The translations under genes were made by a program, and so were the position numbers. A model generated the notes under the pieces. It did no database searches, had not been told where the DNA came from, and worked only from the letters and a program-made list of their open reading frames with translations. From IMG/VR virus record IMGVR_UViG_3300042987_001724: DNA of 64,000 nt; one strand, given 5' to 3'. The DNA is from a virus. Taxonomy: Duplodnaviria; Heunggongvirae; Uroviricota; Caudoviricetes. Below are positions 14,287 to 52,715 of the stretch, in pieces. Positions within the stretch are counted from its first letter, which is position 1, and every line of letters begins with the position of its first letter.

Positions 14287-14511
14287 TTGATCCAAATGAG
14301 AAAGCGTAAAAGCTGGAACGAGCAGATATGCTCAATCGAAAACAAGGGATACTCTGCCTTCACGAGCGGCCAGCCTATTGAATCCAATCCGTATGTCGGC
14401 GGACATCGCAATCAAAACGGGAGCGGTGGCCAGTTGCAGAGACAACGGGGCTATGCGTGGTCGCGAGGCTGGAGGCTTGCGGAATCAGAGTCCCAAGAGA
14501 AACCCGCGTAG
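14287..14511 (+). CDS. Rmf-like (ribosome modulation factor-like) small protein
   Basis: KGYSAFTSGQPIESNPY..RQRGYAWSRGWRLAE aligns to the Rmf core (RGYQAGIAGRSKEMCPY..QRSQWLGGWREA). Paralogous to 52485..52715. Confidence 0.4.
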   Translation: MIQMRKRKSWNEQICSIENKGYSAFTSGQPIESNPYVGGHRNQNGSGGQLQRQRGYAWSRGWRLAESESQEKPA

Positions 14512-14563
14512 CGACTGAATCCGCCGCGCGGTAAAATCCACGGCTAAACTGCAAGGAACCCGA

Positions 14564-16489
14564 ATGTCTGCATCGTCACGATTTTCGCCACAGGACTGGG
14601 AGGCCACTTTAGTCGCCTGCCACTACCATCCAAAGCACGTCAAGGAACTGATGAAGCTGAGGGACGACATGCACGACTACGAAATGCACGTCCACCGGCT
14701 AGCAACAGATCCGAACCATAAAGTCCCGGACCCGCCGAACGTGACGATGCGACTCGGGCAGATCATTGGTGATGATGCCATGCGGCAATTCAGCCGCGAC
14801 GACGAATCCCCGCTCGAACTCGCCTGCCGACTCTCTGGGATCGGCCCGGCTGATGTTATCGCGTCTCTACCGTCGGAATTCAGCCGCCAGTTAGACGATA
14901 TCGGCCCCGTTGAATTCGGCCAGAAGTCGTTTGACTGGGACGAGACTGCGGTACACCGGGAAACGTCCGCTCACGACGGGAAAAAGCCCGGCGAATTCGC
15001 ACCAAAGCATGACTTCCCCGCAATCAATGCCGTGAAAGACGAATACAAGTTTCCGGAACGGCTGAATAAGCTGACTGCGATTCTGGATGCACATCAAACC
15101 GGAGATGTCCCGAAGGCTCAGTTCGAAATGGCCAAGAGCCACCTCAACTGGATTAAAGACGCAAAACGCCATTTGCTCGACTGGATGCACGCGGACCGAG
15201 ATGGGGATACTGATGCCGAACACCCACCAATGTCTCCAGCAGAAAGCGAGGCGGTTCGTGAGGCGTATTATGGATTCAACAAGAAGTCCATCAAGGCACT
15301 CGAAAAGCTGAACTCCGACCACCCAGCGGTAAAATACGCTCTCGCTCTGAATGCGGAACTGGACAAACTTGGCTCGCACATCGAATCCATGAAAGACAGG
15401 GTTGTCACGGCGGCACAGCAAAGGGAAGCCAAGAAAGCCGCAGCGGTTCGCGCCGAGAAGTCGAAGCCAGTGACCTCACTTTCGAAGGTTGTTGCCGAGG
15501 CGACTGAAACACTTCGCCCACAAATGACGTCCTTCTTTAAGCGAGTAATGACTGATCGGTTGAGTCTTCTGAATCGCATGGTTGACGAATACAACTCACA
15601 AGAGATTCCAAAGTCCACCGGGATTAGACTCACCAAGGAAGAACGAGACGCAGAGGAGTCCAGAAGCCGAAAATGGAAAAGCATCCAAGTCCTGTTCTCT
15701 GAAGTGCGAAACTGCCTGAGCGCTGACGCATCGGTGATGGAGGGAAACCACAAATTCGACGATGCTCGACTCGAAAGCCAGTCCAACGCATACGCCACGG
15801 GAGTCATCGAAGGGATGAGGTCCAAGATCAACCAAAAGCTGGAGGATCTTGACGACGCCAGCTTTAGGCATGCCAGCGGCGGCGAAAACACATTCGGATT
15901 GCACGGAACTCGCGACGGAAAGAAAGTCGAGATTCAGCAGAGCGTAAAATGGAACGTATCGTCTCTCGGGAACCCATTCAATCAGTATCCGGCCCTGATC
16001 TACGTTGACGGCAAGAGCGTATCTGAGGCGAAGTACAAAAGCATGTTCAGTCAGAAACCTGAACATCCGTCAAGTGAACCGGAGAAGCCAAAAGGCTCTG
16101 CACAGTCATTCATCTCTACCGTGCGGGAAATGGGATACAAAAACCCATTCTCCAATGAGACAGTTGTCGGAAACGCCGCCGTAGAACTGCACGCCAGCCC
16201 GGACGGATCGGTCTGGTTGAAAAGCATTCGGGCACTGACGCCGAAAAAAGGCGACGGCAGCGCAATGCTGAAGCAACTCACGAAACTGGCGGATGAAAAC
16301 GGAGTCGAGATCAAGGGCGAAGCGGTCCCATTCGGCAAGAGCATGAGTGCTGCGAAGCTCAAGAAATGGTACGTCGCCCACGGATTTACGCTGAACGGAG
16401 AAGAGTTTACCTACACGCCAACTCCACGATTGAAGATCGGCAGCGGACCCATGCGATCAATCCCAATCGAACAGCCGGAGCAAGAATAG
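14564..16489 (+). CDS. polyvalent protein 1 (641 aa) with linker module and C-terminal GNAT-like domain
   Basis: Contains RQFSRDD and SEFSRQLDDIGPVEFGQKSFDWDETAVHRETSAHDGKKPGEFAPK (module). C-terminal GNAT motif A-like LKSIRALTPKKGDGSAMLKQL. Ends EEFTYTP plus tail. Confidence 0.8.
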   Translation: MSASSRFSPQDWEATLVACHYHPKHVKELMKLRDDMHDYEMHVHRLATDPNHKVPDPPNVTMRLGQIIGDDAMRQFSRDDESPLELACRLSGIGPADVIASLPSEFSRQLDDIGPVEFGQKSFDWDETAVHRETSAHDGKKPGEFAPKHDFPAINAVKDEYKFPERLNKLTAILDAHQTGDVPKAQFEMAKSHLNWIKDAKRHLLDWMHADRDGDTDAEHPPMSPAESEAVREAYYGFNKKSIKALEKLNSDHPAVKYALALNAELDKLGSHIESMKDRVVTAAQQREAKKAAAVRAEKSKPVTSLSKVVAEATETLRPQMTSFFKRVMTDRLSLLNRMVDEYNSQEIPKSTGIRLTKEERDAEESRSRKWKSIQVLFSEVRNCLSADASVMEGNHKFDDARLESQSNAYATGVIEGMRSKINQKLEDLDDASFRHASGGENTFGLHGTRDGKKVEIQQSVKWNVSSLGNPFNQYPALIYVDGKSVSEAKYKSMFSQKPEHPSSEPEKPKGSAQSFISTVREMGYKNPFSNETVVGNAAVELHASPDGSVWLKSIRALTPKKGDGSAMLKQLTKLADENGVEIKGEAVPFGKSMSAAKLKKWYVAHGFTLNGEEFTYTPTPRLKIGSGPMRSIPIEQPEQE

Positions 16490-16492
16490 CCA

Positions 16493-19400
16493 ATGTCGCT
16501 CGAATCCGACCTGCAAACCGTACTCGGTTCATTTGTGGAAGTTTCCACGCCAATTCCTTTCTCAAGAACCGCCGCACCGGGGCAGAAACGTCTCTGGAAT
16601 GAGGCCGATGTCAGCCGGGAGTCCGAAGCCCATGAGGGGAAGCGCCCCGGCGAGTTCGCCCCGAAGCCACATGAGGGCACTGTTGACATCGGGAACGGAG
16701 TGTCGCTTAAAACTCATCCGCCAAAAACACACGTTATTAGGCCCGGCAACCAGTACGACACCCATTATTGGGAGGCCATAAAAAACGGAGAGACCATCGG
16801 CAGCGGGAGATATGCGAACTACGGAACCGCAACCCAGCCACTGGAGGTATCGGTGAATCCGTCGCATCGCGGTCAGGGAGTTTATTCGTCGGTGTTGGCG
16901 GAACTAAATCGCCGCGCGACTGTAATCCCGAACGACCTAAGCGTAAGCACTGAAGCAAAAAGGGCGTGGAACAGATTTCGAAAACAAACCGGAGAGCAAC
17001 CACAGTTCCCAGAAGCTATGACTCCGCAAGAGAAAAAGTCAAAAACGCCAGCCGGTCAGAATCTCCTGTTCGACTCCGGCGTCAGCGATCAGCCCGTAGC
17101 GAAGCCAGCCCCGCAACCGAGTGAGTTGGAGAAGATTGACGACGAGCAGAAGAAATCGAAGATTGCTCCGGTCGAAGGGCAGAAAGAGCTATTTGAGGGT
17201 GGATTGGAGCCTGTTCATCACCACGTCGCGAAGCGATTCGGGATTCCCCCGCACGCCGTCAAGAGCCTGATGGAATCCGGCGTGCCAGAATTGCGACGCC
17301 GCGACGAGTGGCTAGCTGAGAGTAATGGGGCTTCCCCGCAAACCGGGTTCGAGACATTCCCTCACGGCACAGCACGGATCAACCAATTCGGCGATCCCAA
17401 CGAATCCTACGTTGATTACATGACGGAATTCAGCCCGCACGATATCGAGCCGACGGAACCAGAGGACGGAATCAAGAAAAGCCAGACGTACAAGGATTAC
17501 GTCCAATGGGCGAAGGCGGGCCACCAGCCTCCCCCGGTCAGTGTGTTCAGTAGTAACAATGGCAACGGGAAACTGTTGACCTCAAGCCGCCGCAGAACGC
17601 TGGCCGCACGAGAGGCGGGAGTCGCAAAGATTCCAGCATGGCACGGACCCTATAACCCTGAAACCGGCAACCCGCTGAAATACGGTGACGTGATGAAGGC
17701 CGTAAACGAGTTCCACTCTCAGCAGTTTTCGCGAACGCTCAATGAAGTCACCCCGATAGAGTTCTCTGTCGCTGCTCCGCCACGTAAACGTCGAGTTATC
17801 GACGACAAGCGAACTCGCGAAGATGTTGACGAAGACGAAAAGGTATTCGGCAAGAAAAAACGAATCCCGACCGATGGTAACAAACCAGAAACCGGCTGGA
17901 CGAAAGTCGGTGGCAGCACGGTCCACGTCAACGATGATGGCGTCATCGACAAAGGCTGTCCCGGATTGAAGGGCGAGGAAGTCGAAGACCTGATTGACGA
18001 ATCCGACGAATCCCGCGAACGCCGCGAAGCCCGGCAGGCATACGCTCGCGCCGCTGGCATCACCGGAGATCAGATCACAGCCGAGCAAGCAAAAGCGATG
18101 GGGAGCGATGCTCACGTCGAAGGAATGAAGCAAGCCAAGGCAGTAGCGGAAGCAGATCCACGCCCAACAATCGGCACATCTGACGTTCTCCGTGGAGTGG
18201 ACGACCAGACCGGAGAGCTAGCCGGGAACGGTCACGAGCTTCTGCAATCCAACAATCGTGAGCACCCAGAATCCAACGAGCAATTCGAGGGAACTGGAAT
18301 GCCGTCGCCGATGAAGTTCATGGACGACGAAGACGAAGGCACCCGCCCGCAGTGGATGGGACCGAAGTTGTCGGAGATGGTCCCGATTCCGCCACGACCG
18401 AAATTCCTGCGAGATCGTGAGCCGCTCGACCACGATGCCGCAGCACAGTACCAGCCCCAGATTGACAAACTTGAGGCGGATATCGCCAAATGGCGAGATG
18501 CTCGCGACGCGATGAAAAAAGGCCGCGACGTCGGCCAATTCGGGCTTTCTCCAGAACAGAAAACCCCAGAATACGCCGATGCGCAAATCAAAGCACTGCA
18601 AGGACCGCTGGGGAAACTGAAACGGCAGTTGTCTGACTACCGGATGCGATCAACTCCAAACCAAAATCCAGCAACGCAGACATGGACCTCGCTGGACTCC
18701 GCAGCAGAGGGAGCGTCATCAAAATTCGGAATCCCAATTCACCACATTGTCGAAGCCATGCCGGATGCGTATTTATTCCGGCTGGCGCAGTCGATCGAGC
18801 ATGAATCGCTCAAAAAGGCAGCACGCAAGAAACTGCAAATGCACGCCGGTGATTTGGCAAGAATCGAAAACCAGCATTCCGACTGGTCTGATGTCCCCCG
18901 CTTCGACGAGGCTTCCCGAGAATTCGCGTCAGAAAACCCCGGTGCAGGTCTGGACCCATACGCCCACGATACGCCAGACAAGGTGTGGAGCCTGATCCGT
19001 GAGGGCGCGACGTCGATGCCAGCCAAGGACTCCCCGGAAATCGCAGAGCTTGCCGCACAGATGATTTCTGGCGACTACAATCGGAAGCCGCTGGAGTTCA
19101 CGTCAGAAGATGACCATGACGATCATGGCGACGATTTTTCAGATGACTGGGGAGGAGAACACGGCGACACGTCATTCGATCCGAATTCGTTCAGTCGATG
19201 GATACTCAATGCCGGTCCCGTGGAGTTCGCCCGCGTCAGGCCCGCCCGCAATCAATCTGCGTTCAATTGGGATGAGGATGCCCACCCCCGAGAGGCCACT
19301 GTACACGACGGAAAACGACCGGGAGAGTTTGCCGCAAAGCAGGGAGTCGCCGCGCCGCAGGAGATCGACCACGAATCCGACTACAAGCAGAACGGAACCC

Positions 19401-31048: not shown

Positions 31049-31058
31049 AAGAATCTAT

Positions 31059-40921: not shown

Positions 40922-40923
40922 GC

Positions 40924-41109
40924 ATGTTTGACCTGACAACGATTCAACTGCGAAACGTGCGAGAACGAGCGCAGGCGGATATCAGAAACGCCATTGGCCG
41001 GAACGATTTTTACGTGGGGACGCCAAGCGTCATCAACGCGCTGAAGATCGCGGCGAAGCAGTGCGACCAAACCCCGGTTGAGGTCTTGGACTACTGGAGC
41101 AAGCGATGA
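40924..41109 (+). CDS. hypothetical small protein
   Basis: 61-aa ORF in a coupled series. Confidence 0.35.
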   Translation: MFDLTTIQLRNVRERAQADIRNAIGRNDFYVGTPSVINALKIAAKQCDQTPVEVLDYWSKR

Positions 41110-41309
41110 CGGAACAAGCCAGTCCACTGAGCACGCCAATAACGCTACATCAAGCCATTATTTACGAAATCGGCGGATCGTGGTGGGCGTCATGGGTTGG
41201 ATATCCACCGCTGCAAAGGATCGTCAGTAAATACTTTGCGTGGAAAGCATCTCGCAAGCTTGCACGTTACAAGTGGCTCTTGGGAACACCACGGGAGGCA
41301 AGGCGATGA
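41106..41309 (+). CDS. hypothetical small Trp-rich protein
   Basis: 67-aa ORF, ATGA-coupled. Confidence 0.35.
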   Translation: MTEQASPLSTPITLHQAIIYEIGGSWWASWVGYPPLQRIVSKYFAWKASRKLARYKWLLGTPREARR

Positions 41310-41396
41310 TGAAGCAACTCGCGGAGGAGCGATGAACACCAGTCAGGCTATCGCTATTTCCGATAACACGTTGACAAAGTATTTGCGGGGCCGATA

Positions 41397-41936
41397 ATGT
41401 CAGAAACCGACGAAAACGAACCCTCTTCTGCTCGCCCGAATGAGGGGTTGGGAAGCGATCCGCTTCATGGCTTACTTCTTGACCCAAACAAGGTTAGGTC
41501 GGACATCCGGATGCTGGCCCACGCCTTCAAGGGGAAAGGCCCGCCGTCGCATCACATTGAGGAGATCTGGAATCGGTTGATGCTCCACCTGCGGACCGAT
41601 GCTGTCCGTGAGATCGACCCGGAAACCGGGATGAACATCGTCAACGAGAAGATGGGGGCGGACATCTCGATCAAGGCTGCTGGCATGCTTGGCCGCTTCC
41701 TTGAGATGTTCGTGAAGGACGAGCAATTGGCGCTGGGGATGATGGAAAAGGAAGCCGCCAAGAGCACGACGATCAACATTGGCGCCATCGGTTCGATTTC
41801 GATGGGGCAGGAGCCACTGACGCCAACTGACGCCAAACTACAGGCGGAGGACATCTTGCAGCGGGTGTTGAGCCGGACGAAGCAGCCGGAGCCGGTGCGG
41901 GTTGAGAATAAATTGGACGATCTGAGTTCTATCTGA
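41397..41936 (+). CDS. hypothetical protein
   Basis: 179-aa ORF with clean composition. Confidence 0.5.
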   Translation: MSETDENEPSSARPNEGLGSDPLHGLLLDPNKVRSDIRMLAHAFKGKGPPSHHIEEIWNRLMLHLRTDAVREIDPETGMNIVNEKMGADISIKAAGMLGRFLEMFVKDEQLALGMMEKEAAKSTTINIGAIGSISMGQEPLTPTDAKLQAEDILQRVLSRTKQPEPVRVENKLDDLSSI

Positions 41937-41946
41937 GGGGAGCTAG

Positions 41947-42204
41947 ATGGCGATCAGCGACTTTTTCAACGGAGAGCGTGCCGGTCGATCTACGGCGCAG
42001 CGAGCGAAAGCAAGCCTGTTTTCACACTCCTGCGACGTGATCGCACATATTGTCGACGCGGTGATTGAACTGGTGCCGCATGTTGTTACGTTCACTGTTG
42101 TCATGATTGTTGTGGCCACGCTTCCCGTATCGGTCCCGGCTATCGCGTTTCTGAGACGCGGGCGGGATCGTGCGGAAGTCTCAAAAAACACGAAAGCCGA
42201 TTGA
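41947..42204 (+). CDS. small membrane protein
   Basis: TM stretch VVTFTVVMIVVATLPVSVPAIAFL. Confidence 0.4.
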   Translation: MAISDFFNGERAGRSTAQRAKASLFSHSCDVIAHIVDAVIELVPHVVTFTVVMIVVATLPVSVPAIAFLRRGRDRAEVSKNTKAD

Positions 42205-42207
42205 TAT

Positions 42208-42543
42208 GTGGAAGTTGAGGCGCAGTCCGGAGCAATGACAGCCCTGTCCGTGGCGATTTCCCGCCGACTTGGCGTCCGTCTGTCGGACCATCAAGCATGG
42301 GAAAGCCAAATGAGGGCGATCGCCGAGTTCGGCACCCATCTTCCGTCTGCTCGATGGGCGAGGCTGGCAATGGCCATTGAGAAATGCGTTCCCCACCTTC
42401 AGGAAGAACTGCGGGAACTGGAGGCGTGGGTAGAGAAGGCGCAGTCATGCGACAACCCGCAAATGGGCAGCTACTGCGACGACTCGGTGTCTCAAAACAC
42501 GGGGTTGAAAGAAACCGCCGATTCGTGCAATGCGAACGCCTGA
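42208..42543 (+). CDS. hypothetical protein
   Basis: 111-aa ORF. Confidence 0.45.
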   Translation: MEVEAQSGAMTALSVAISRRLGVRLSDHQAWESQMRAIAEFGTHLPSARWARLAMAIEKCVPHLQEELRELEAWVEKAQSCDNPQMGSYCDDSVSQNTGLKETADSCNANA

Positions 42544-42575
42544 AACGCCTTGCGTCAAAACTGCGAAATAACGCT

Positions 42576-42593
42576 AATTCCGGGAATTATCTA
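42576..42593 (+). promoter_or_regulatory. palindrome AATTCCGGGAATT + ATCTA abutting a start codon
   Basis: Third copy of the element. The trailing ATCTA overlaps the ATG at 42593. Confidence 0.5.
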
Positions 42594-42934
42594 TGGCTCG
42601 AAAACTCGATTCAACGATCACCGTCACCTTGAGCTTCCCGGCGTTGCTGTCGATGCTGGCTTCGATTCGTGGCGGCGGACTCGCCCGGATCAACGGAGAC
42701 CTTCCGTATCCACCCGACGGGGCGAAGCAAATCATTCTCCCGAAGATCGACATCGGTATCCCGCTCCCGGAAGGCTGCGAGGTCGTTTCGGCGAGCAGCA
42801 ATGGCGACTACGTCAATGTAACGCTCTGGCATGAATCGTTTGCGGGAAATCACCGACAAATACCACTTACTGCGATTCGGCTGCTGTGCATTGACGTACA
42901 ACGACAGCGAGCCATCCCGGCGAGAATTACTTGA
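42593..42934 (+). CDS. hypothetical protein
   Basis: 113-aa ORF starting immediately at the palindromic element. Confidence 0.45.
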   Translation: MARKLDSTITVTLSFPALLSMLASIRGGGLARINGDLPYPPDGAKQIILPKIDIGIPLPEGCEVVSASSNGDYVNVTLWHESFAGNHRQIPLTAIRLLCIDVQRQRAIPARIT

Positions 42935-43027
42935 TGGATTGGAACGAACTTACCCAACTTCGACTTGATTTGTGGAAGTTTCTGGTAAAATGCCATCAAG
43001 ATAGCGTCATTCGGGGGATGAAAAATA

Positions 43028-43627
43028 ATGGCTGACGTGAGTTCAATCCAAGTCAACATCGACGAGCACTACAAGCAATGCGTGATGGCGTTACAGCAGA
43101 TCGCACAACTCGCGGATACGGGAAGCAAAGCCCACAAGGAACGATTCTGCCCGAACGCAGAAGGCGATGGAATCGCCAATGGATGGCGCGTCGCTGAGGC
43201 GATGCGAGAGATCGCAAACGATGTTGTCGGTAGCATCAGCCTGCCTCGATCATTGTTTTGCGTGTACGACCGTGTTCGAGTGAAAGCCGGTCGCGATGCT
43301 GGCCATTACGGGACAGTCACGCACGTCGGAGGGGATGACGGAACTTACTACGGCGTGAAACTGGACTGCCACGACAAGGAAATCGGATACAGCGAGTATG
43401 AATTGGAATATGCGAGGCTGGATGAACCAGCATGGGTGACGCGATTCGCAAAAGGAAATGCTGCGACCAGTCCGTTCACCGCAAAGGAAATCGCCGATCA
43501 GGTTCGAGAAATGCTGGTGTATAAGCGGGCTATGGAGTCGATGGCGCGTCAGTTCATTCATCCGAAAATGACGGCAATTGAGATGGCGGAAATGCAATTA
43601 CGAGACAGCGGTACAGGCGAGGGTTGA
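43028..43627 (+). CDS. hypothetical protein
   Basis: 199-aa ORF. Preceded by GGAAGTTTC-N6-TAAAAT. Confidence 0.5.
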   Translation: MADVSSIQVNIDEHYKQCVMALQQIAQLADTGSKAHKERFCPNAEGDGIANGWRVAEAMREIANDVVGSISLPRSLFCVYDRVRVKAGRDAGHYGTVTHVGGDDGTYYGVKLDCHDKEIGYSEYELEYARLDEPAWVTRFAKGNAATSPFTAKEIADQVREMLVYKRAMESMARQFIHPKMTAIEMAEMQLRDSGTGEG

Positions 43628-43903
43628 GTGATGCGTCCTGAATCCTATTCTGATAAGCCTCTCGAAAGGTGTTGTAGTACCTGTCGATTCTCTCATCTCG
43701 TCGCCTACAAGCTCGATCTGCTGTGCTTTCATGGTGACAAAATCGAGATCACAGGAACGAGCGAATACCCAGTCACCGCGCATCACGTCATGCTGAATGG
43801 CAATGATGATGTCGGAATGATGGAAGGTGATTCCTACGACAGAATCTGGGGGTCACGGTCAGTTGATGGGGAAGCGGTTTGCGACTTTTGGGAGCCAGAG
43901 TGA
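43628..43903 (+). CDS. Cys-rich hypothetical protein
   Basis: 91-aa ORF with CCSTC..C. Confidence 0.45.
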   Translation: MMRPESYSDKPLERCCSTCRFSHLVAYKLDLLCFHGDKIEITGTSEYPVTAHHVMLNGNDDVGMMEGDSYDRIWGSRSVDGEAVCDFWEPE

Positions 43904-44259
43904 TGACAACGAAACAAGTCACCGAGGTTCAGATTCGCTGGATGATTCGTCGAGACATGCCAGAAGTCTTGGAAATCGAGAACCAGTCTTTCGAGTTCCC
44001 GTGGAGCGAGGAAGATTACATTTCGTGCCTGAGCCAGAGAAACTGCATCGGCATGGTCGCGGAGCACGATGAGCGTATCGCTGGCGTGATGCTGTACGAG
44101 TTGCTGAAGTCGAAGCTGCACGTTCTAAACTTCGCCGTCCATCCAGAATTCCAGCGTCAAGGTGCTGGCGGGGCCAAGAAGTGGCAAAAGTCAACTGACA
44201 CCAGATGCACGGCAGAGGCGAGAGCGGTGTGTCGCTCATACGGTGGCCGTTCTCGATAA
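43903..44259 (+). CDS. GNAT (RimI-like) N-acetyltransferase, possibly C-terminally degenerate
   Basis: IRWMIRRDMPEVLEIENQSFEFPWSEEDY..LHVLNFAVHPEFQRQGAGGA matches the RimI N-terminus through motif A. The region after motif A does not align to GNAT motif B. GGAG RBS and TGATG overlap. Confidence 0.45.
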   Translation: MTTKQVTEVQIRWMIRRDMPEVLEIENQSFEFPWSEEDYISCLSQRNCIGMVAEHDERIAGVMLYELLKSKLHVLNFAVHPEFQRQGAGGAKKWQKSTDTRCTAEARAVCRSYGGRSR

Positions 44260-44506
44260 GACGTATACGCCACTCGCCCTATCTCCCGGAATGACCGTTG
44301 AGCATCACGCAAACTGCTCTCTGATCGACGATCAGTGCGATTACGAGGAATGCCAGATCGTCAGGGAAGACGCGGGTTGACCAATGAACGGTTACGATCT
44401 TGGCAGTGCGGCGGCAAGGGGAATTCTCGCGTTGATCGTCGGCGCGATGATTTGCGGGGCGGCGATGATGGCCGTTGTGGTTTGGGTCGGAATGTCGATC
44501 CTGTCC

Positions 44507-45181
44507 CTAGCTTCGCGAACTATCCGGAAACTCCGGAAGGTTCAGCATGTACCGCCAGCCTTCGACGAGCCACATCACAAACGCGGCTGAATCTTCGCCG
44601 TACCATCCGCAGGCATATGGATGATGGCTTTCGACGAGAGCGATCTGCCCGGTTGAGAGTCGCCCGAAGTCAACGGCACCGCAGAAGCCTTTCGGCCAGT
44701 CGATGTTGAGTTCCGGGGCTGGTTCGAGTTCATCGTCACCGTCATACCATCCAGTTTCGAGAACGCAGCCATCAGCGACGTAGTATCGCCACTCCTGAGT
44801 GAACTCGACGACTTCGGACAGGTAGAGACAGCCCGGCGGATACTCTTGCGAATCTTCGACGATTTTCGCGGGGAACGCCTTGTATCGTTCGGCAGACTTC
44901 ACGAACCAATCGCCAAGGAATCTCGCCCCGCCGGTACGGATTCCCCACCGACGGTGCATCCAGTCATGAAGGAACACCGGGTAGAAATCAGGCGTCGGGT
45001 TGTATCCCAGACAGTCTTCGCAGTAGTCGACGCTACCGACCGGAGTCTTCCCGATTGTCGTTTCCGGGTTCCCCCAGCCGACTTGATAGCCGAGCTTCCG
45101 TGCGCCTTCGATCGCCTTGACGGCTTCGCGGCTCGATCCGTAGCCAGTCTCAAGCCAGAGTGTCGTCATGTTCAGGTCCAT
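44507..45181 (-). CDS. hypothetical protein (possible ATP-grasp-like fold)
   Basis: 224-aa ORF. Weak resemblance to ATP-grasp C-terminal regions (GARFLGDWFVKS.., VDFGRLSTGQIALVESHHPYACGWYG). The functional call is low confidence. Confidence 0.35.
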   Translation of the reverse strand: MDLNMTTLWLETGYGSSREAVKAIEGARKLGYQVGWGNPETTIGKTPVGSVDYCEDCLGYNPTPDFYPVFLHDWMHRRWGIRTGGARFLGDWFVKSAERYKAFPAKIVEDSQEYPPGCLYLSEVVEFTQEWRYYVADGCVLETGWYDGDDELEPAPELNIDWPKGFCGAVDFGRLSTGQIALVESHHPYACGWYGEDSAAFVMWLVEGWRYMLNLPEFPDSSRS

Positions 45182-45295
45182 GCCAGAAGTTTTCCATCGC
45201 AGATTGCTGGATCGCGAAATACCGTGCCGCGCCTGTTTGGTCTCGCCATGCCAACCATTCGATGCACCATTCCTCGTACTGGTAATCCAGTGTCG

Positions 45296-45637
45296 TCACT
45301 TCATTTCCTCCACCCATCGAACCAGCATCTGCGGACTGAACCGGCACGGATGATCGGGATACGCTTCCCGAAGCATTTCAGACGCCCGGTACGGTTTGAT
45401 AGATCCATCTGCAATCCTCGCCAGCATCGCCACGGCTTCCGCTGGTGGCTTCTTTCGCGGTCGTCCGGAGTTTCCCTTGGCGGCGAGTCCCGCCCGGCTG
45501 CGGTTCGCCTGTAGCGTTTCCAGATTGGCGCGGAGATCCAGCAGGAGAGAGCGGAGTTCACCCCGGATGGAATTTCCGAGCTTGTCCACCTTGGTAATGG
45601 CGGAGTCGATGCGAGCGATCAGTGGATGTGGTTTCAT
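45296..45637 (-). CDS. hypothetical protein
   Basis: Internal Met with GGAGGTGA RBS (MKPHPLIARIDSAI..). First of a tightly coupled minus-strand series. Confidence 0.45.
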   Translation of the reverse strand: MKPHPLIARIDSAITKVDKLGNSIRGELRSLLLDLRANLETLQANRSRAGLAAKGNSGRPRKKPPAEAVAMLARIADGSIKPYRASEMLREAYPDHPCRFSPQMLVRWVEEMK

Positions 45638-45794
45638 TTCACCTCCCCGGATTCCGGAATTGGCTGCTGTTTCCACTCACGACCGACGAGCTTGAATGAG
45701 GCGACGTCATCTTCGTCGGAATAAATCTCGATCCTCAGCGATCCATCCCGGTCGTCAATGCAGAGAAACACACCGTTCGGCCTCATGAATGTCA
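45634..45794 (-). CDS. small hypothetical protein (about 52 aa, not in ORF track)
   Basis: MTFMRPNGVFLCIDDRDGSLRIEIYSDEDDVASFKLVGREWKQQPIPESGEVK. ATGA overlaps at both ends. Coordinates are approximate. Confidence 0.3.
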
Positions 45795-46007
45795 TAGTTC
45801 GATGTTCTCGTCCTCATCCGCGATGATCTCGTCGATCTGCCGTTTCGCTTCCTCAAAGCTCGGGGCTGTCCCGCATCGTTCATCCGGAGGCCCATCGTAG
45901 TCGACGTGAGCGAACTGGTAGTCCCATGCTCGCGTCGGTACTGGTGGCGGATCGTAGCTGATTTTGTAGTCGCGATAGACTTCAGGGACTCGGTGAAATT
46001 CTGTCAT
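45792..46007 (-). CDS. hypothetical small protein
   Basis: 71-aa ORF, ATGA-coupled. Confidence 0.4.
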   Translation of the reverse strand: MTEFHRVPEVYRDYKISYDPPPVPTRAWDYQFAHVDYDGPPDERCGTAPSFEEAKRQIDEIIADEDENIEL

Positions 46008-46243
46008 TGCGATTCCTTTTCATCCATAACCTTGACGGACCATGCGGAGACATCTCCGGGAAGATGCGACTCCGCTTCCTTTTGTGCGGCCTCGATTGAC
46101 GGCCTACGGATGCGACCATTCAGGACAAATCCGTTCAGTGAAAGCGTCCAGTTGTAGCCAGTCTGCTTGCTGCGGCGAATTCGGATTGCATAGACATCCG
46201 CACCGGCTCCGGTTTCGAGTTCAGGGTTTTCCGTGTCGTTCAT
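46004..46243 (-). CDS. hypothetical small protein
   Basis: Internal Met start (MNDTENPELETGAGADVYAIRIRR..) gives an ATGA overlap with the upstream gene. The long ORF-track 5' extension is Arg/Pro-rich low-complexity. Confidence 0.4.
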   Translation of the reverse strand: MNDTENPELETGAGADVYAIRIRRSKQTGYNWTLSLNGFVLNGRIRRPSIEAAQKEAESHLPGDVSAWSVKVMDEKESQ

Positions 46244-46443
46244 GGCGAAACCTTTTCGAGTTTGTGGTAGATCGCTTCTGGGATGCAAATCCGCGCCCCG
46301 CGATAGATGTAGAAGTAGACGGAACCGACGCCGTGTTTCTTGTCGCCGATGTGTGCGTTCACTTCGCGACCGTCGGACAATTTGACGCGGCCCCGGCGGC
46401 GGATGTTTTTCAGGCGGATCGTGAGGATAATTTCGTCTGTCAT
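46240..46443 (-). CDS. hypothetical small protein
   Basis: 67-aa ORF, ATGA-coupled. Confidence 0.4.
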   Translation of the reverse strand: MTDEIILTIRLKNIRRRGRVKLSDGREVNAHIGDKKHGVGSVYFYIYRGARICIPEAIYHKLEKVSP

Positions 46444-46667
46444 TTCGCCACCAATTCAACTTCAATTCCACCCGGAAACCGAACTCGCCCACCCCAGTCA
46501 AGGTCGAGGGCGATCACCCCGGTCGCATCGCCGGGTTCGTCAGCAACTCGCCTGTATGTGTGGCAAGGACCGCACATACCACGAGCAATAAATTCATCAC
46601 CTTGAGCGAGTTCACTAGCCTTCATCATCATCTCCTTGTCGCGGGTGCCTGTTGCCTTCATCGTCAT
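46440..46667 (-). CDS. hypothetical small protein with CxxC
   Basis: Internal Met (MTMKATGTRDKEMMMKASELAQGDEFIARGMCGPCHTYRR..) overlaps the upstream stop by ATGA. Confidence 0.4.
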   Translation of the reverse strand: MTMKATGTRDKEMMMKASELAQGDEFIARGMCGPCHTYRRVADEPGDATGVIALDLDWGGRVRFPGGIEVELVAK

Positions 46668-47161
46668 TCTCCGTTCGTTTCTTCGAGATCCCGGCAGTCG
46701 CTGCACACGAGGCCGGTTTCCCTTTCCTCTTGGTTGATGTATCCCGCTGACCCGTCCTTGCGGACATACTCGCCCGTTCGGTTGCGGCTGAACTTCCCGC
46801 ACTTCGAACAGTGACGGAGGCTGGCGGCTGGTTTCTTTTTCGATTTCAGACTGTTCGATCGTTGGGGCATGCCGAGTTGCATGCGACGCGCCCGGTCTGC
46901 GGCGAATGTCCCGATCTTTTCCCATCGTTCGTCAGGGAACTCGATTCGCAGTCGGTCGTAAAGCTCGTAAATCGCCCGGTCGTAGTCATCGTTCGTTCCG
47001 GGAAGAGGCAGTTCAAACCCGCTACTCCGCGCGAATCCGACCATCTCGGGCCGCGTTACGCGATAGGATGGAGCAACATCCAGCACAGACTTCGATGGCG
47101 TCCGGCTGCGAAACCTGCGATCCGTTTCATCGACAATCATTTTGATTTGGTCTGGTGTCAT
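46664..47161 (-). CDS. hypothetical protein with C-terminal Zn-ribbon
   Basis: 165 aa, with CSKCGKF..CSDC at the C-terminus. Confidence 0.45.
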   Translation of the reverse strand: MTPDQIKMIVDETDRRFRSRTPSKSVLDVAPSYRVTRPEMVGFARSSGFELPLPGTNDDYDRAIYELYDRLRIEFPDERWEKIGTFAADRARRMQLGMPQRSNSLKSKKKPAASLRHCSKCGKFSRNRTGEYVRKDGSAGYINQEERETGLVCSDCRDLEETNGE

Positions 47162-47418
47162 TTCGGATTCCGTTCGTCGACAATCTTCTGAAAGTTGGAA
47201 TCGACGGCTGCGATGCAGTTGCCGGTTGCGCCCACCAGTTCAATCAGGGCGGAGCGGAGGCTTCCGTACTGACACCGCTTGTCGGACTTCGCCAGCGAGA
47301 CGCCGTGAACCGCTGAAGCGATTTGCTGACGCAGGATCGCGGCACGGGGACCGTAAATTGCGTCCATGTATCGCTGCCCGTTCGTGGCGGAAGATTTCAG
47401 GATCTCGATTGCCTTCAT
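47158..47418 (-). CDS. hypothetical small protein
   Basis: Start at MKAIEILKSS after a GGAGAGGA RBS. First gene of the minus-strand operon. Confidence 0.45.
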   Translation of the reverse strand: MKAIEILKSSATNGQRYMDAIYGPRAAILRQQIASAVHGVSLAKSDKRCQYGSLRSALIELVGATGNCIAAVDSNFQKIVDERNPK

Positions 47419-47489
47419 CGTAATTCCTCTCCATGTTGAGTGACTGAACAACAGGAACAATATCGACCTGTCCCGCTCGCGTCAACAGT

Positions 47490-47507
47490 AATTCCGAGAA
47501 TTATCTA
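47490..47507 (+). promoter_or_regulatory. palindrome AATTCCGAGAATT + ATCTA
   Basis: Fourth copy. Lies in the divergent intergenic region between the minus operon (47418..) and plus gene 47682. Followed ~90 nt later by GAAAAACTTCCGTAGAAT. Confidence 0.5.
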
Positions 47508-47681
47508 CAGGCTGACCACCGGCTTGATTGCCTTGACGAGCTTCCGCTACTGTTTACGCTCAAAAAACTCTCCAGATCACCAAAATGCGAGAATTTTCTG
47601 AAAAACTTCCGTAGAATGTGATCCGACGCGGCTTGCGAGCGTATCAATGGGCGGGTGATGTTCCGCAAACGGGAGAGCTAA

Positions 47682-48110
47682 ATGGACCTGAAAGAGCGAG
47701 TCGAACTGATGCGGCAGACATTGGACGCACTTGAACGAATCGAGGCGAACGGCGGAAAAGTGCCGGATGGGTTTGTGCTGGAATGTACTGACCGTGGAGA
47801 GCATTGGGGCCGATCTGCCTATGTGAACGTAGCCGACAAAACAGTTAGACAAACTGATGCTGGAGTGTATTACCGACTCCGCAGCACAACCCCGCGACTG
47901 GTTCCGCTCGGGCCGGAAGACGTGCCGCCGGGAAGTGTCGTTCGTCTCGCAAAAGTCGGATGGCTCGCAGTCTCAGAATGCGCAGATGAAGGATTGATCG
48001 TCAACTCGCTCGCTCCCGACGACATTTCATGGAGCAGGCTTATGGATGATGGATGGGAAATCAAACGCCCCGGCGAAGACTGGGCACCGTGCAGTAAGGA
48101 GTCGAAGTGA
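47682..48110 (+). CDS. hypothetical protein
   Basis: 142-aa ORF. Confidence 0.5.
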   Translation: MDLKERVELMRQTLDALERIEANGGKVPDGFVLECTDRGEHWGRSAYVNVADKTVRQTDAGVYYRLRSTTPRLVPLGPEDVPPGSVVRLAKVGWLAVSECADEGLIVNSLAPDDISWSRLMDDGWEIKRPGEDWAPCSKESK

Positions 48111-48176
48111 TTATCGTTGCGAGTTCCCATTCAGGGGCTTGTGAGACTCCGTAGAGCTTGGAGCCACGGAGCAGGT

Positions 48177-48215
48177 CAGACGCCGCGTCACTTCGATTCG
48201 GCGTCTGATTTCGTT
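48177..48215. terminator. bidirectional intrinsic-terminator-like hairpin
   Basis: TCAGACGCCG-N12-CGGCGTCTGA is a 10-bp perfect stem followed by TTTCGTT. It sits between convergent genes. Confidence 0.5.
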
Positions 48216-48795
48216 AGTAGAGAAAGAATGATTTCGACCTGCCGTCTTCGTTGGTGATCGTGAGATTCTCCGAAACGGACTGCTTTGACAGAAACGCCGT
48301 CATGGCCGTCGACAGCGGCCCCTCAACATCGAATGGGCTGAACATCTTCTGGAGCATGGGCCACGCCTTGGACATCCTGCCAGACTTCCTGACGTAAGGG
48401 TGCATCCACGCCCATTGCATCGCCCAGTATTTGCTTGGGGACGTGTTTGGATACTGCCGAAACCGAAAGCAGCAAGCGCCAACTGCAACCGGCTTTTCTG
48501 GCATGGAGTCGAGAAATAGGACAGCAATCGTGCCATCATCGCGAGCGGCCTCGACCGCAGAGTATTGGAGAAGGTCGTATCCGAATTCACGGCGAAAATA
48601 TTTTGCCAAAGTCTCGACAGCATTGAGCGACGACTTTCGGCTACGGCGGTGGACAAGCCTCGTCTCTACGGGTTGCTCAACGCCAGCGACAATGTCTGGT
48701 CTCGTAGTTATTTCGCGGAGGCTCTCGAATCTCTCGACCGATGGAAGAATGATGTCGTATTTGCTGCTCACTTCCGTGGCCTCCCTTTCGGCCAT
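48214..48795 (-). CDS. hypothetical protein
   Basis: 193-aa ORF. Confidence 0.45.
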   Translation of the reverse strand: MAEREATEVSSKYDIILPSVERFESLREITTRPDIVAGVEQPVETRLVHRRSRKSSLNAVETLAKYFRREFGYDLLQYSAVEAARDDGTIAVLFLDSMPEKPVAVGACCFRFRQYPNTSPSKYWAMQWAWMHPYVRKSGRMSKAWPMLQKMFSPFDVEGPLSTAMTAFLSKQSVSENLTITNEDGRSKSFFLY

Positions 48796-49034
48796 CCCCC
48801 GCCATTGTTCGACCCTTCCCCGAGCTTCGGATTTCCGGGGCTGCGAAGGATCACGGCGCGGAGCTTCGGAATGTCGGTGTCAGTGAACGCCAGTGCTCGC
48901 CCCACGGTCTGGCCGATGTTGTGATTTCGCGCCGCACGCTGGACGGACCGGCTGTGGCATCCGAGGGATTCGGCGACTTCCGTAGAGGTGTAGAGCTTGC
49001 CGAGTTCCGGTGGCTTCGGTTTCTTCTTTTTCAT
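48768..49034 (-). CDS. HTH DNA-binding protein (excisionase/AlpA-like)
   Basis: Basic N-terminus followed by an HTH: LYTSTEVAESLGCHSRSVQRAARNHNIG. Confidence 0.5.
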   Translation of the reverse strand: MKKKKPKPPELGKLYTSTEVAESLGCHSRSVQRAARNHNIGQTVGRALAFTDTDIPKLRAVILRSPGNPKLGEGSNNGGGWPKGRPRK

Positions 49035-49222
49035 TTCGCTTTTCTTTCCAATCTCAACTCTTCTGGCGTCAACCGTCGACCGAAGTCAACGAAAAACGTG
49101 CATCCGCATTCATGGCATCTCGGCACGCCGCGACTCGGTGTCGTGAACTTGCTTCCAGACACGAACGCAACATTCTGCGCCCCGCAGAACGGACAAAACG
49201 CAACTTTTGGATTCTTCTCCAT
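49031..49222 (-). CDS. Zn-ribbon small protein
   Basis: CPFCG..CHECG. ATGA-coupled. Confidence 0.45.
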   Translation of the reverse strand: MEKNPKVAFCPFCGAQNVAFVSGSKFTTPSRGVPRCHECGCTFFVDFGRRLTPEELRLERKAK

Positions 49223-49341
49223 GCGGAAATTATTGTCGCGACGGCGGCGATGGTCAAGACTTCCGCTTGATTTCTGATTTCGCGCCGCTAAACTGGAAGT
49301 TGGTCGGAAACTTCTACGGAAAATCGGAGAGGAGCGGAGGG

Positions 49342-49647
49342 ATGATGATTGTTGTCGACATTTTCATTGGATTCGCTGCCGGATGCACAGTGATGGGGCT
49401 TGCCTTCGGTCTCTACGGCAATCCACGAGCGGACCAGCTTGAGGCGGAGTTGGCTGGCGTCCGGGATGCGATTCACGAAGAGTTCGAAGACGAACTCAGG
49501 TTCATGAGGCTTCGCAACACCAAGTTACAAGAGCGACTCTCGTCTTGCCTTGATGCGTTGATTTCGTGGGAAAAATGGGCAGGTATCGCCATGCGAGAGA
49601 TGCCGAGAGTTGAAAACCACACTGAAGACGAATGGTCCGCAGGATGA
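49342..49647 (+). CDS. small membrane protein
   Basis: Strong GGAGAGGAGCGGAGGG RBS. MMIVVDIFIGFAAGCTVMGLAFGLYG TM followed by a coiled coil. Confidence 0.45.
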   Translation: MMIVVDIFIGFAAGCTVMGLAFGLYGNPRADQLEAELAGVRDAIHEEFEDELRFMRLRNTKLQERLSSCLDALISWEKWAGIAMREMPRVENHTEDEWSAG

Positions 49648-50243
49648 CGAACGATTTCCCCGGAACGAAGCTACCGGATCTGTCGAAGCTCCCGGCGACT
49701 GATCGCGAAAAGCAGATCGCAGCGGAGTATTCGCGAATCTCAACCGAGGATACGGTCCCGATTCTTGTCGTCGGGCGGCAATCATTCCAACTCGGTGGAT
49801 TGACCGGACTCGGCGACGATCAAGCGAATTGGACGTGCTGGATGCTCGCCAAGGCCATCAAGAAGATTGAGGACGCGGTTTACGACAAGGCTATCGAAAA
49901 GATCAACGACATGGCCTCTGCGGCGTCCGGAAAGTCTGATTCGATTGCGAACATATTGAATCTTCTGGAGTGCTACCGACTCTCGAAGCAGGGAAAAACC
50001 GGCGACGATGCTAAGGTTCGGGATGAAGTCGGATCGCCACCGATGCGGAAGTTTCGCGGCGAGGCTTACGCGGCAACATGCTATGGGACCGCGCCGGTTG
50101 AATTTGAGTTCGAGGTTCCCGCAACTGCGACCGTCGAAGAAATTGAATCCGCCGCAAATATGGCTGCGATGGACGAGGTGCAGGTTAGCTGGAGTGAGGT
50201 ACATCCGCCAAAACCACGAAAGAAGAAAGTCAAAACCGACTGA
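49632..50243 (+). CDS. putative terminase small subunit (positional call)
   Basis: About 200-aa ORF immediately upstream of, and overlapping, the terminase large subunit gene. No diagnostic motif. Confidence 0.3.
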   Translation: MVRRMTNDFPGTKLPDLSKLPATDREKQIAAEYSRISTEDTVPILVVGRQSFQLGGLTGLGDDQANWTCWMLAKAIKKIEDAVYDKAIEKINDMASAASGKSDSIANILNLLECYRLSKQGKTGDDAKVRDEVGSPPMRKFRGEAYAATCYGTAPVEFEFEVPATATVEEIESAANMAAMDEVQVSWSEVHPPKPRKKKVKTD

Positions 50244-51913
50244 TGGTCCCGGCCCCGAAGACTGTTGAGTCCTGCGAAGAATTCGCCCGATCACAAGAGT
50301 TGATTCCGGAACTGGACGCTCTACTTTCGAATTGGGACCATCTCACGCAAGCGGAGCGAGACTTTGCCCTGAAGTACGCGAAGTACGTCGATCGAGGCTA
50401 CCGTATCACGCCATACATGATGCGAGCTTGCCCGAATCCGTACCCGAAGCAACAGCAGTTCATAAGTCTCAATGATTTAGAGGCTTACACAGGGGGAAGT
50501 ACGGGCGGCGGAAAATCGAATGCCTTACTTCTGGCTGCTCTCCAATTCGTGGATATCCCCACATACTCGGCTTGCGTGTTTCGCGCCACGTACACCAACC
50601 TTTCGAAATCTGGCGCGATAATGGACCGTGCGAAGTCGTGGCTGATCTACGACGGCTCCGACGTCCACTGGAACGCCAATGATTGCGTTTTCACGTTCCC
50701 CAGCGGCGCGAAGCTCTCGTTCGCCTACATGCAGTCACAGAAGCACGCCGACAATCATCGGTCAGCCGAATACACTTTCTTGGCATACGATGAAGTGACT
50801 GAGATCCCGGAGGAGTGCTATCGGTTCCTGTTCTCTCGTCTTCGCAGAAATAAGACCGGCTTCAATATCCCGCTGCGGTGCCGATCGGCGTCGAATCCGG
50901 GGGGCGAGCACTCCGAGTGGGTTAAAAATCGGTTCATCCCGAAAGGATACTTGGAATGCAAGGACAACGAATTCCGGTTCAACAGGCTGTGGAAGAAGGG
51001 GGAGGTTTGCTCTGACTGCGAGGGAACAGGGAAGCTCGACAAGGAGCCTTGTTTCTATTGCGATGGGGTCGGGTACACGACAAGGACATTTGTCCCGTCC
51101 CGAATTCAAGACAACCCCGCGATGGACGCAAACGAATACCGCAAGGCGCTGTCAAAGCTGACATTCGTCGAGAGACAGCAGGCGGAGCATGGCGACTGGA
51201 ACATCACTGCCGAAGGTGGCGTGTTTCGTTTGGCATGGTTCCGTTACTACACCATGAATGGCGACTACCTGAAGCTGCCTCGATTCGACGAGCACAACAG
51301 GCCGCTTTCGACGCTGGCGATCAGCAAAAAGGATTGCGTCATATTCGTCACTGCGGACACGGCCACGAAGGAAAAGACGACGGCAGACTTCAGCGTGATC
51401 TGCACATGGGCCTACCATCGACAATCTGGATCTCTTGTCTTGCTCGATGTCATCCGCAAGAAGGTGGACACGCCGGAACTTCTGCCGCTTCTGTCTGGAG
51501 CCTGCCTGCAATCGCACGCCCAATTCGTTCTTATCGAAGAGGCGTCATCCGGAGTTGAATTATTGCAGTCGCTGCGAAAGAACAACGCTTGTATCGGCGG
51601 AATTCCCGTCAAAGCGTTTCTGACGGGTTCGAAAGACAAGGTTTCTCGTTCGGCACCTGCGCAGATTCGCATGGAATCCGGGATGATCTATTTCCCCGCA
51701 GAAGAGACGGAGTGGAAGTCAGCTTGCCAAGCGGAGTTACTTTCGTTTGGCTCCGCCACAGCCCCCCACGACGATTTCGTCGACAACGTCAGCATGGCGG
51801 CGTGGTACGCAGAGAATCACAACACGATCCACATCGGCGGTGGCGAGAACGCGGCCCCGGTGGAGATCGCGGCTGGCCCTTCGCTACCCGGTAGGCGGAT
51901 GCAATTCGGATGA
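50243..51913 (+). CDS. terL: terminase large subunit
   Basis: ATPase Walker A GGSTGGGKS and Walker B FLAYDEVTE. C-terminal RNaseH-like nuclease (VIFVTADTATKEK.., HDDFVDNVSMA). Confidence 0.9.
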   Translation: MVPAPKTVESCEEFARSQELIPELDALLSNWDHLTQAERDFALKYAKYVDRGYRITPYMMRACPNPYPKQQQFISLNDLEAYTGGSTGGGKSNALLLAALQFVDIPTYSACVFRATYTNLSKSGAIMDRAKSWLIYDGSDVHWNANDCVFTFPSGAKLSFAYMQSQKHADNHRSAEYTFLAYDEVTEIPEECYRFLFSRLRRNKTGFNIPLRCRSASNPGGEHSEWVKNRFIPKGYLECKDNEFRFNRLWKKGEVCSDCEGTGKLDKEPCFYCDGVGYTTRTFVPSRIQDNPAMDANEYRKALSKLTFVERQQAEHGDWNITAEGGVFRLAWFRYYTMNGDYLKLPRFDEHNRPLSTLAISKKDCVIFVTADTATKEKTTADFSVICTWAYHRQSGSLVLLDVIRKKVDTPELLPLLSGACLQSHAQFVLIEEASSGVELLQSLRKNNACIGGIPVKAFLTGSKDKVSRSAPAQIRMESGMIYFPAEETEWKSACQAELLSFGSATAPHDDFVDNVSMAAWYAENHNTIHIGGGENAAPVEIAAGPSLPGRRMQFG

Positions 51914-51975
51914 TGTCGGGAATTTTCCGATAAACTTGTGATCTGATCGGATTCTGGAACGTATCACAGGACGGG

Positions 51976-52488
51976 TTGTTATCACGGATCGAAGTTTATG
52001 GGGATCGCGATATGAGATCAAAGAATCGTAGGCTTGCCTGCGGAACAGCAAAACGACTGATTGATGGTGTTGTTCGCCGGTGCGATGAAGTGAACGCCAG
52101 TGGAGAATTCATCGAATCCGTTGCGCGTGCGTGGCTATTTGGCTCCTGCGCTCGCGGCGAGCAGAGGCCGCACGACGTGGATATCTGCCTTCAGCTTGAC
52201 CGGAGGCCACACGGCGTTTGCGGTCAAGAATGGGTGCAGACGTCGATTCGGTTCGCGGAGGAATCCGGCAGAGAATTCAGGTCATTCATGGACATGATCT
52301 ACTGGCCGACGACATCCCTGTTGCGGAAAGTTCGCGGTGGATCGGTCGCGCTGTCGATTCACATTTACCACGATACGGAAAAAATCGTCTACGACCATCC
52401 AGAGACGACGATGATTTACGAATGCGAAAACCTGAAGGGTATCGTTGCAGATCCTCTCGGGAAACCTTTCACGGGAGTATGGCAATGA
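51976..52488 (+). CDS. minimal nucleotidyltransferase (Pol-beta superfamily) domain protein
   Basis: WLFGSCARGEQRPHDVDICL matches the hG[GS]x[AR]xGxxxxxSD[hV]D NTase signature. Confidence 0.55.
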   Translation: MLSRIEVYGDRDMRSKNRRLACGTAKRLIDGVVRRCDEVNASGEFIESVARAWLFGSCARGEQRPHDVDICLQLDRRPHGVCGQEWVQTSIRFAEESGREFRSFMDMIYWPTTSLLRKVRGGSVALSIHIYHDTEKIVYDHPETTMIYECENLKGIVADPLGKPFTGVWQ

Positions 52489-52715
52489 AAGGGAAGCGAC
52501 GCTCGAAGAATGAAAAAGACATCCAGCATGAAGGCGTCTCTGCCTTCGCTGCGGGTTCACAGGACACGGACTGCCCTTACAAATCGAACGGGAACGCAGC
52601 CGACGTGTCACAGAAGCGGATTTGGTGGATGAACGGCTACTGGGCCGCGCATGTTGTCGCGAATGTTCGCGGCGTCACCTTGAACGAAATGCTTGCGGAA
52701 AAGGATGCGGAATGA
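52485..52715 (+). CDS. Rmf-like (ribosome modulation factor-like) small protein
   Basis: KDIQHEGVSAFAAGSQDTDCPYKSNG..SQKRIWWMNGYWAAHVV aligns to E. coli Rmf RAHQRGYQAGIAGRSKEMCPYQ..QRSQWLGGWREAMADRVV, including the CPY and W..GW..A motifs. Confidence 0.5.
   Translation: MKGKRRSKNEKDIQHEGVSAFAAGSQDTDCPYKSNGNAADVSQKRIWWMNGYWAAHVVANVRGVTLNEMLAEKDAE

Follow-up and report, generated by a model that had tools for sequence, protein, structure and literature searches.

Does an uncultivated tailed phage carry homologues of ribosome modulation factor (Rmf), and would such proteins act on the ribosomes of its host? This question is raised by two small open reading frames (ORFs) in the IMG/VR record IMGVR_UViG_3300042987_001724 (Caudoviricetes), a stretch of 64,000 nt that was analyzed as a whole and is called the window here. 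Rmf is known from gammaproteobacteria and is, to our knowledge, the only member of its fold with a known mechanism. A sequence-only reading had proposed two Rmf-like proteins at 14287-14511 (ORF1) and 52485-52715 (ORF2), and both ORFs are present there on the plus strand. In this study, we show that ORF1 and ORF2 encode small proteins of the Rmf/CrpP-fold superfamily, with a predicted two-helix hairpin, and that neither is an Rmf orthologue.

Homology of ORF1 and ORF2 to the Rmf/CrpP fold

The only Pfam family matched by the two proteins was RMF (PF04957), with 24.2 bits for ORF1 (E 3.6e-5) and 18.5 bits for ORF2 (E 2.2e-3). Both scores are under the gathering score of 27.9 bits, and by this measure ORF1 matched better than ORF2. 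NCBIfam searches returned models of the Rmf/CrpP type only, all of them below cut-off for both ORFs. For NF041886 (cut-off 28 bits), ORF2 reached 27.2 bits, 0.8 short, and ORF1 15.8. For NF041887 (Rmf_like_phage, an equivalog model that requires 40), the scores were 18.4 bits for ORF2 and 13.3 for ORF1. These two models are short (39-43 positions) and do not cover the insertions and extensions of either ORF subfamily. NF033696 (55 required) was matched by ORF2 at 12.1 bits and not by ORF1, and NF041856 (cut-off 35 bits) was weakly matched by the ORFs (E 1.6e-3 and 2.3e-3). The NCBIfam model for Rmf itself, NF011162 (PRK14563), was unmatched by either ORF at E<=10.

ORF2 had been said to align convincingly with Escherichia coli Rmf. 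This was not borne out by pairwise comparison, as BLASTP against E. coli Rmf gave no ORF2 alignment at E<=100; for ORF1 a match of 17 residues was obtained. Single-sequence phmmer searches of the ORFs against the PDB gave no match, and neither did a profile built from ORF2 only (A1).

Profiles built from more sequences were then compared with the PDB. A profile of ORF1, ORF2 and six close homologues gave three matches among 177,635 PDB sequences, all of them RMF. An exhaustive search of 1.84 billion representative proteins yielded 83 proteins at E<=1e-3, mostly of 55-90 residues, with the same core, and 75 of these formed the set for family scans, in which matches were counted at E<0.01. PF04957 was matched by 69 of the 75 and NF041886 by 67, while NF041887 and PRK14563 were matched by 46 and 30, respectively. 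The profile of the 75 sequences found RMF at E 1.7e-9 and no other PDB entry. With an ORF1-type profile the PDB matches were RMF chains only (E 4e-6), and with an ORF2-type profile RMF ranked first (E 1.4e-3) and the top three matches were RMF chains. Leave-out profiles, which contained only family members less than 35% identical to the tested ORF, recovered ORF1 at 38.9 bits (E 3e-11) and ORF2 at 50.9 bits (E 6e-15), with E calculated over 1307 six-frame fragments of the window. Judged from these profiles, the resemblance to Rmf is far beyond chance. These results support the conclusion that both proteins are related to the Rmf fold by remote homology, which is settled by profile methods, although the Pfam and NCBIfam thresholds for Rmf are missed.

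The core motif that had drawn attention to the two ORFs is present in both. As first typed it was approximate: the actual spacing is G(Y/V).A...G.....(C/N)PY, and ORF2 has GV instead of GY and W..GY instead of W..GW. AlphaFold models of ORF1 and ORF2 were confident, with predicted local distance difference test (pLDDT) values of 86.0 and 84.8. Each model has two long helices, and that of ORF2 has a short third helix. When the ORF1 model was used for structure comparison, many unrelated helical hairpins were matched and RMF was not singled out.

Across the family, the conserved residues are those of the core only, namely G, A, G, (C/N)PY, W and G(W/Y), and surface positions differ between the subfamilies. 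Since the core is conserved and the surfaces are variable, the fold seems to be a compact binding scaffold. We consider this combination of homology and a binding-module role, leaving the ribosome aside, to be probable.

ORF1 and ORF2 are conserved genes of two subfamilies

ORF1 encodes a Rmf/CrpP-fold protein of 71 residues at 14296-14511 (+), with the sequence MRKRKSWNEQICSIENKGYSAFTSGQPIESNPYVGGHRNQNGSGGQLQRQRGYAWSRGWRLAESESQEKPA. As listed, the frame opens at TTG 14287. The conserved start is ATG 14296, because protein conservation with L002, a 42-kb contig from a close relative of the window phage, begins exactly there and the residues upstream differ; the in-frame TTG is probably not used. 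A clear Shine-Dalgarno sequence was not found before ORF1. Its one homologue (P0006) lies at the same position in L002 and is 90% identical. Between the two genes, 14 codon changes are synonymous and 7 are non-synonymous, and 19 of the 26 base differences are at third codon positions. The comparison with L002 also identified a conserved stretch at 14246-14295 (+), a 3' remnant of 45-50 nt from the upstream gene seen in L002, which stayed attached to ORF1. The gene upstream of ORF1 was thus replaced between the window and L002, and ORF1 was retained.

The ORF1 subfamily follows the pattern SW..QI..IE.KG..AF.AG.P...NPY..GYRNQNG.GG.LQRQR..AW.RGW and is distinguished by a Gly-rich insertion of about 13 residues in the linker between the helices. 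ORF1 has a pI (isoelectric point) of 9.9 and a basic N-terminal tail, MRKRK. In ORF1 and most other members of its subfamily, the Cys of the CPY motif is replaced by Asn, and a metal-binding role for this cysteine was rejected on that ground.

ORF2 encodes a Rmf/CrpP-fold protein of 76 residues at 52485-52715 (+), starting at ATG 52485. A Shine-Dalgarno-like GGGAG, read from the sequence, lies at 52473-52477 (+), 7 nt before this ATG. The ATG overlaps the stop codon of the preceding gene (ATGA), and the ORF2 stop overlaps the ATG of the next gene, so that the junctions are typical of translational coupling in phages. Five homologues share 64-96% identity with ORF2. This subfamily has a linker insertion of about 7 residues and a conserved C-terminal extension, AAHVV.NVRGVTL.EMLA, which forms the extra helix. 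ORF2 is nearly neutral (pI 7.9), and a basic tail is not conserved in its subfamily.

ORF1 and ORF2 are 32% identical and belong to separate subfamilies, and a recent duplication of one gene was therefore rejected. A profile search of the 1307 six-frame fragments of the window found no third Rmf-like copy; an embedded third Rmf-like domain inside the giant proteins described below was rejected on the same result. Both genes have stayed in place, ORF2 in L001 (a 47-kb contig from another close relative) and ORF1 in L002, while flanking genes were exchanged. As far as gene conservation can tell, these results show that ORF1 and ORF2 are genuine conserved phage genes of two distinct subfamilies found in phage-like metagenomic contigs.

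Distribution of the family and comparison with known members

On phage-like contigs 8 to 220 kb long, the members of the wider family are encoded in arrays of small genes that overlap. In L008 and L009, two unrelated contigs of IMG/VR, a portal gene and a MuF gene lie on either side of the ORF2-type gene. The MuF gene of L008 (6373-8025) contains intein insertions, and the TerL of L009 (1003-3414) a Hint domain. ORF1-type genes elsewhere are found among small overlapping early-type genes, one of them near Sipho_Gp157 and a Lar restriction-alleviation gene, and others are on phage-like contigs of 109 kb and 220 kb. The link of ORF1 with a giant protein, seen in the window and in L002, is lineage-specific.

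Several members carry repeats of the fold. P0061 (L084, 8001-11954) is a protein of 1317 residues with several Rmf-like repeats; it scores 73 bits with Pfam RMF, and the family profile recognizes four stretches. Its gene lies within a row of large plus-strand phage genes, and a PHROGs scan of the P0061 neighbours gave no match. Smaller tandem-repeat Rmf-like proteins are P0071, P0069, P0070 and P0030.

Megablast of both ORF regions against 50,697 deposited phage records returned no close relative. No usable result came from tblastn searches of phages with ORF1, ORF2, E. coli Rmf and the family member P0013. In IMG/VR, the ORF1-type motif was sought with three degenerate DNA patterns, which gave 0, 0 and 74 matches, and none of the 74 encoded a family member. 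ORF2-type searches found two loci in IMG/VR and one in JGI metagenomes, and a scan with the ORF2 alignment found no relative in 185,579 GTDB species genomes.

The two ORF products resemble Rmf (PF04957; PRK14563; PDB 2jrm, 4v8g, 6h4n), a small basic protein with an N-terminal Lys/Arg tail and a helix-linker-helix structure, and share with it the core G-(Y/V)-x-A-x3-G-x5-(C/N)-P-Y ... R-x2-W-x2-G-(W/Y). They are longer (71 and 76 residues for ORF1 and ORF2 versus 55 for Rmf) and less basic (pI 9.9 and 7.9 versus 10.9). The linker insertions amount to 13 residues in ORF1 and 7 in ORF2, and ORF2 has the extra C-terminal helix. The gene for Rmf lies on a gammaproteobacterial chromosome, whereas ORF1 and ORF2 are phage-encoded. 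Closer in setting are the proteins of NF041886 ("Rmf/CrpP family protein") and NF041887, which belong to the same superfamily and are largely found on mobile elements and phages. CrpP and the CrpP-related proteins of Pseudomonas integrative and conjugative elements (ICEs; NF033696, NF041856) are also small proteins of this fold on mobile elements, but their context is an ICE and not a phage, and the ORFs score far under the CrpP cut-offs. Of the 75 family members, 14 matched the PHROGs family phrog_13106, which has no assigned function, and the fold is thus already present in sequenced phages; neither ORF1 nor ORF2 matched this PHROG at E<0.01.

The JGI pipeline labels two family members "ribosome modulation factor", and literature searches found no papers on phage-encoded Rmf homologues. 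Phage-borne Rmf-fold proteins are already catalogued in the NCBIfam models and the PHROGs family, and ORF1 and ORF2 are divergent members outside the curated thresholds. The only unusual aspects are the two-copy arrangement and the placement of ORF1 ahead of a block of polyvalent proteins.

Genome context of the two genes

That the two proteins are phage-borne is supported by the gene content of the window, a tailed-phage genome which encodes SSB, an ECF-type sigma factor and PhoH. Its head genes are those for a TerL-like protein, a portal-sized protein, a lambda-D-like decoration domain and a lambda-E-type capsid protein. The window phage is 99.5% identical to its L001/L002 relatives in TerL, 100% in the capsid protein and 93% in PhoH. 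A GTDB genome scan with TerL found no relative.

ORF1 is directly followed by the genes for a 641-residue protein and a 2899-residue ART-PolyVal polyvalent protein (14564-25192, +). These open a polyvalent block of about 25 kb (14564-39363, +), which consists of the 641-residue ORF and four giant ORFs of 2899 (ART-PolyVal), 1331 (LPD1), 1263 (methyltransferase domain) and 1318 residues (weak DarA_C). Packaging and injection are assumed for polyvalent proteins of this kind (Iyer et al. 2017, PMC5512222). L002 keeps the order of ORF1, a short protein and the ART-PolyVal giant. Candidate promoter-like and terminator-like sites, which are consensus matches only, were found at 13375-13454.

Several features of the block were observed in addition. 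This polyvalent, Dar-like and presumably injected set is unusually large for a phage of this size. A module of 35-70 residues recurs with 40-80% identity in four of the five block proteins: at about 105-148 in the 641-residue protein, at 1-58, 897-964 and 1430-1479, thus three times, in the 2899-residue protein, at 552-647 in the 1331-residue protein and at 21-118 in the 1263-residue protein. The N-terminus of the 1318-residue protein resembles, by eye, that of the 1263-residue protein. The recurring module could act in capsid targeting or protease cleavage, or as a linker. The block is interrupted between the genes of the 2899- and 1331-residue proteins by a gene on the minus strand (25207-26190), whose 327-residue product gave weak matches to HNH/His-Me endonucleases and to a helix-turn-helix, and is possibly a homing endonuclease.

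ORF2 lies in a tightly packed plus-strand array of the TerL-like gene (50243-51913, +), a Pol-beta/MNT-type nucleotidyltransferase gene directly upstream of ORF2 (52012-52488, +), ORF2 itself and a gene for a 182-residue protein. In the near-identical L001, the nucleotidyltransferase is reduced to a remnant of 40 residues (9888-10007), and ORF2 is kept. Since the nucleotidyltransferase is intact in the window and a remnant in L001, it occupies a variable accessory slot. Small genes on both strands (51913-57593) fill the roughly 5.7 kb from the TerL-like gene to the portal-sized gene (57593-59023), for which there was no Pfam match; such a spacing is unusual for a lambda-like head module.

Elsewhere in the window are the genes for the ECF-type sigma factor (9906-10475, -), PhoH (12226-12972, +), a Band_7 protein (5986-6528, +; assigned from the Pfam match of its 96%-identical L002 homologue), a GNAT acetyltransferase (43879-44259, +) and a KOW-motif protein (43028-43627, +). 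No Rfam RNA families and no tRNAs were found in the window. L001 has a weak match to DUF1580 at 12497-12766 (-); DUF1580 is a family described from Rhodopirellula, and the match would hint at a planctomycete host, which was not confirmed, and the GTDB scans gave no prophage relative.

Possible action on the ribosome and alternative readings

Helix 1 of Rmf inserts between 16S h28 and h37/h40 via R3, K5, R8, R11 and R15, its linker and helix 2 hold the 3' end of 16S rRNA, and E10, R37 and Q39 contact domain 4 of S1 (Beckert et al. 2018, doi 10.1101/382572). According to the same study, 100S formation in E. coli depends on HPF and compacted S1. We propose that the Rmf/CrpP fold may serve phages as a compact binding module and an accessory host-takeover protein. 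On the 30S subunit of the host, the docking site of the proteins would be the Rmf pocket, which adjoins the 3' end of 16S rRNA, or a place close to it. Such docking would interfere with the pairing of Shine-Dalgarno and anti-Shine-Dalgarno sequences, so that host translation initiation would be hindered, or ribosomes would be parked and protected; 100S dimers would not be required. By analogy with Rmf, docking on 30S may be the single most likely activity.

The equivalents of the rRNA-contacting residues, with the five Rmf residues named above as reference, were read from hidden Markov model alignments. The analogy is favoured by the partial retention of the N-terminal basic tail and of R37, which is kept in ORF2 and is Gly in ORF1. 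The following points weigh against it. Each ORF keeps two of the five rRNA-contacting basic residues. ORF1 has equivalents of R3 and R15 (K5 and K17), with W7, Q10 and S13 at the K5, R8 and R11 positions. ORF2 has equivalents of R3 and K5 (K4 and R6), with N9, D12 and E16 at the R8, R11 and R15 positions; it is thus acidic at R11 and R15, and the R15 position, which precedes the conserved Gly, is E, D or Q throughout its subfamily. ORF2 also does not keep Rmf E10 and Q39. The linker, which in Rmf contacts the anti-Shine-Dalgarno region, has 7-13 additional residues in the two ORFs, and model confidence is lower in this part. Both ORFs fall under the Pfam gathering score and the NCBIfam cut-offs, and PRK14563 is unmatched. 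The proposed ciprofloxacin/fluoroquinolone-modifying activity of CrpP has, as cited in PMC9495688 (its ref 33, Zubyk & Wright 2021), been refuted, and CrpP is therefore no functional guide.

For ORF1, 30S docking is tentative but plausible, because of its pI of 9.9, the tail MRKRK and the Lys at the Rmf R15 position. For ORF2 it appears unlikely, because its pI is 7.9, the R11 and R15 positions are acidic and its subfamily lacks a conserved basic tail. ORF2-type genes also tend to sit in the packaging/head module, and ORF2 may therefore have been retargeted.

In the main alternative, the hairpin was retargeted and binds something other than the ribosome. The proteins might then be virion- or packaging-associated adaptors, chaperones or co-injected partners of portal, MuF or polyvalent proteins, or else inhibitors of another host system such as defence; ORF2 could be a head/packaging component, and ORF1 could belong to the polyvalent-protein system. 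Gene positions point in this direction. ORF1 heads the polyvalent block with its ART-PolyVal, LPD1, methyltransferase and DarA_C proteins, a position kept in L002, and the consensus-matched sites at 13375-13454 would place it in the polyvalent transcription unit. ORF2 follows TerL in the window and L001, and its relatives in L008 and L009 stand between portal and MuF. The repeat protein P0061 is encoded in a row of large phage genes, only core residues are conserved across the family, and the pI of ORF2 is close to neutral. However, the association is not general, since no giant ORF is near the ORF1-type genes of L004, L091 and L093, whose neighbours are small genes of early type, and an Rmf domain goes unmentioned in the survey of polyvalent-protein domains (Iyer et al. 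2017, PMC5512222). We regard retargeting as a serious but rather doubtful alternative.

The two proteins might instead be functional equivalents of Rmf that bind the anti-Shine-Dalgarno pocket of 30S and drive 70S ribosomes into hibernating 100S dimers during infection. Homology to Rmf, a basic N-terminal tail like its MKRQKRDR and the JGI label on two family members would fit this. Against it stand the sub-threshold Rmf scores, the loss of three of the five rRNA contacts per ORF, the changes at the S1-contacting positions (E10 and Q39 in ORF2, R37 in ORF1) and the linker insertions. In addition, 100S formation needs HPF and compacted S1, and nothing similar is encoded nearby; Rmf is gammaproteobacterial, and the species genomes scanned held no ORF2 relative. 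Full equivalence with Rmf is very improbable. Finally, chance open frames with a coincidental motif might be suspected because both ORFs are short, ORF1 lacks a clear Shine-Dalgarno sequence and single-sequence PDB searches were empty, but judged from the sequence comparisons and the models this reading is effectively refuted by the leave-out E-values, the homologues conserved in other contigs, the third-position bias of the ORF1 substitutions, the GGGAG and ATGA-coupled junctions at both ends of ORF2 and the confident AlphaFold predictions.

Discussion

In this study, we obtained a solid remote-homology annotation, which is not a demonstrated new mechanism; ribosome hibernation as the function of ORF1 and ORF2 is a hypothesis with mixed support from sequence. 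The boldest form of the 30S-docking proposal is that a phage, whose host possibly lacks Rmf, deploys two structurally distinct Rmf-fold proteins as ribosome-silencing or parking factors. One of them would be co-expressed or delivered with the 25-kb injected polyvalent arsenal, and the other would come from the packaging/head module. We consider this combined scenario distinctly unlikely. If it were true, phages would directly manipulate ribosome hibernation, and the wider Rmf/CrpP family carried by phages and ICEs would represent a class of translation modulators encoded by mobile elements.

Concrete candidates within the mobile Rmf/CrpP set are the two subfamilies described in this study (alignments A5 and A6). 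If the phage versions bind 30S, this would add a new way in which viruses control host translation, and a function would be assigned to a widespread family of small mobile-element proteins. If another partner is bound, the hairpin would be a reusable binding scaffold.

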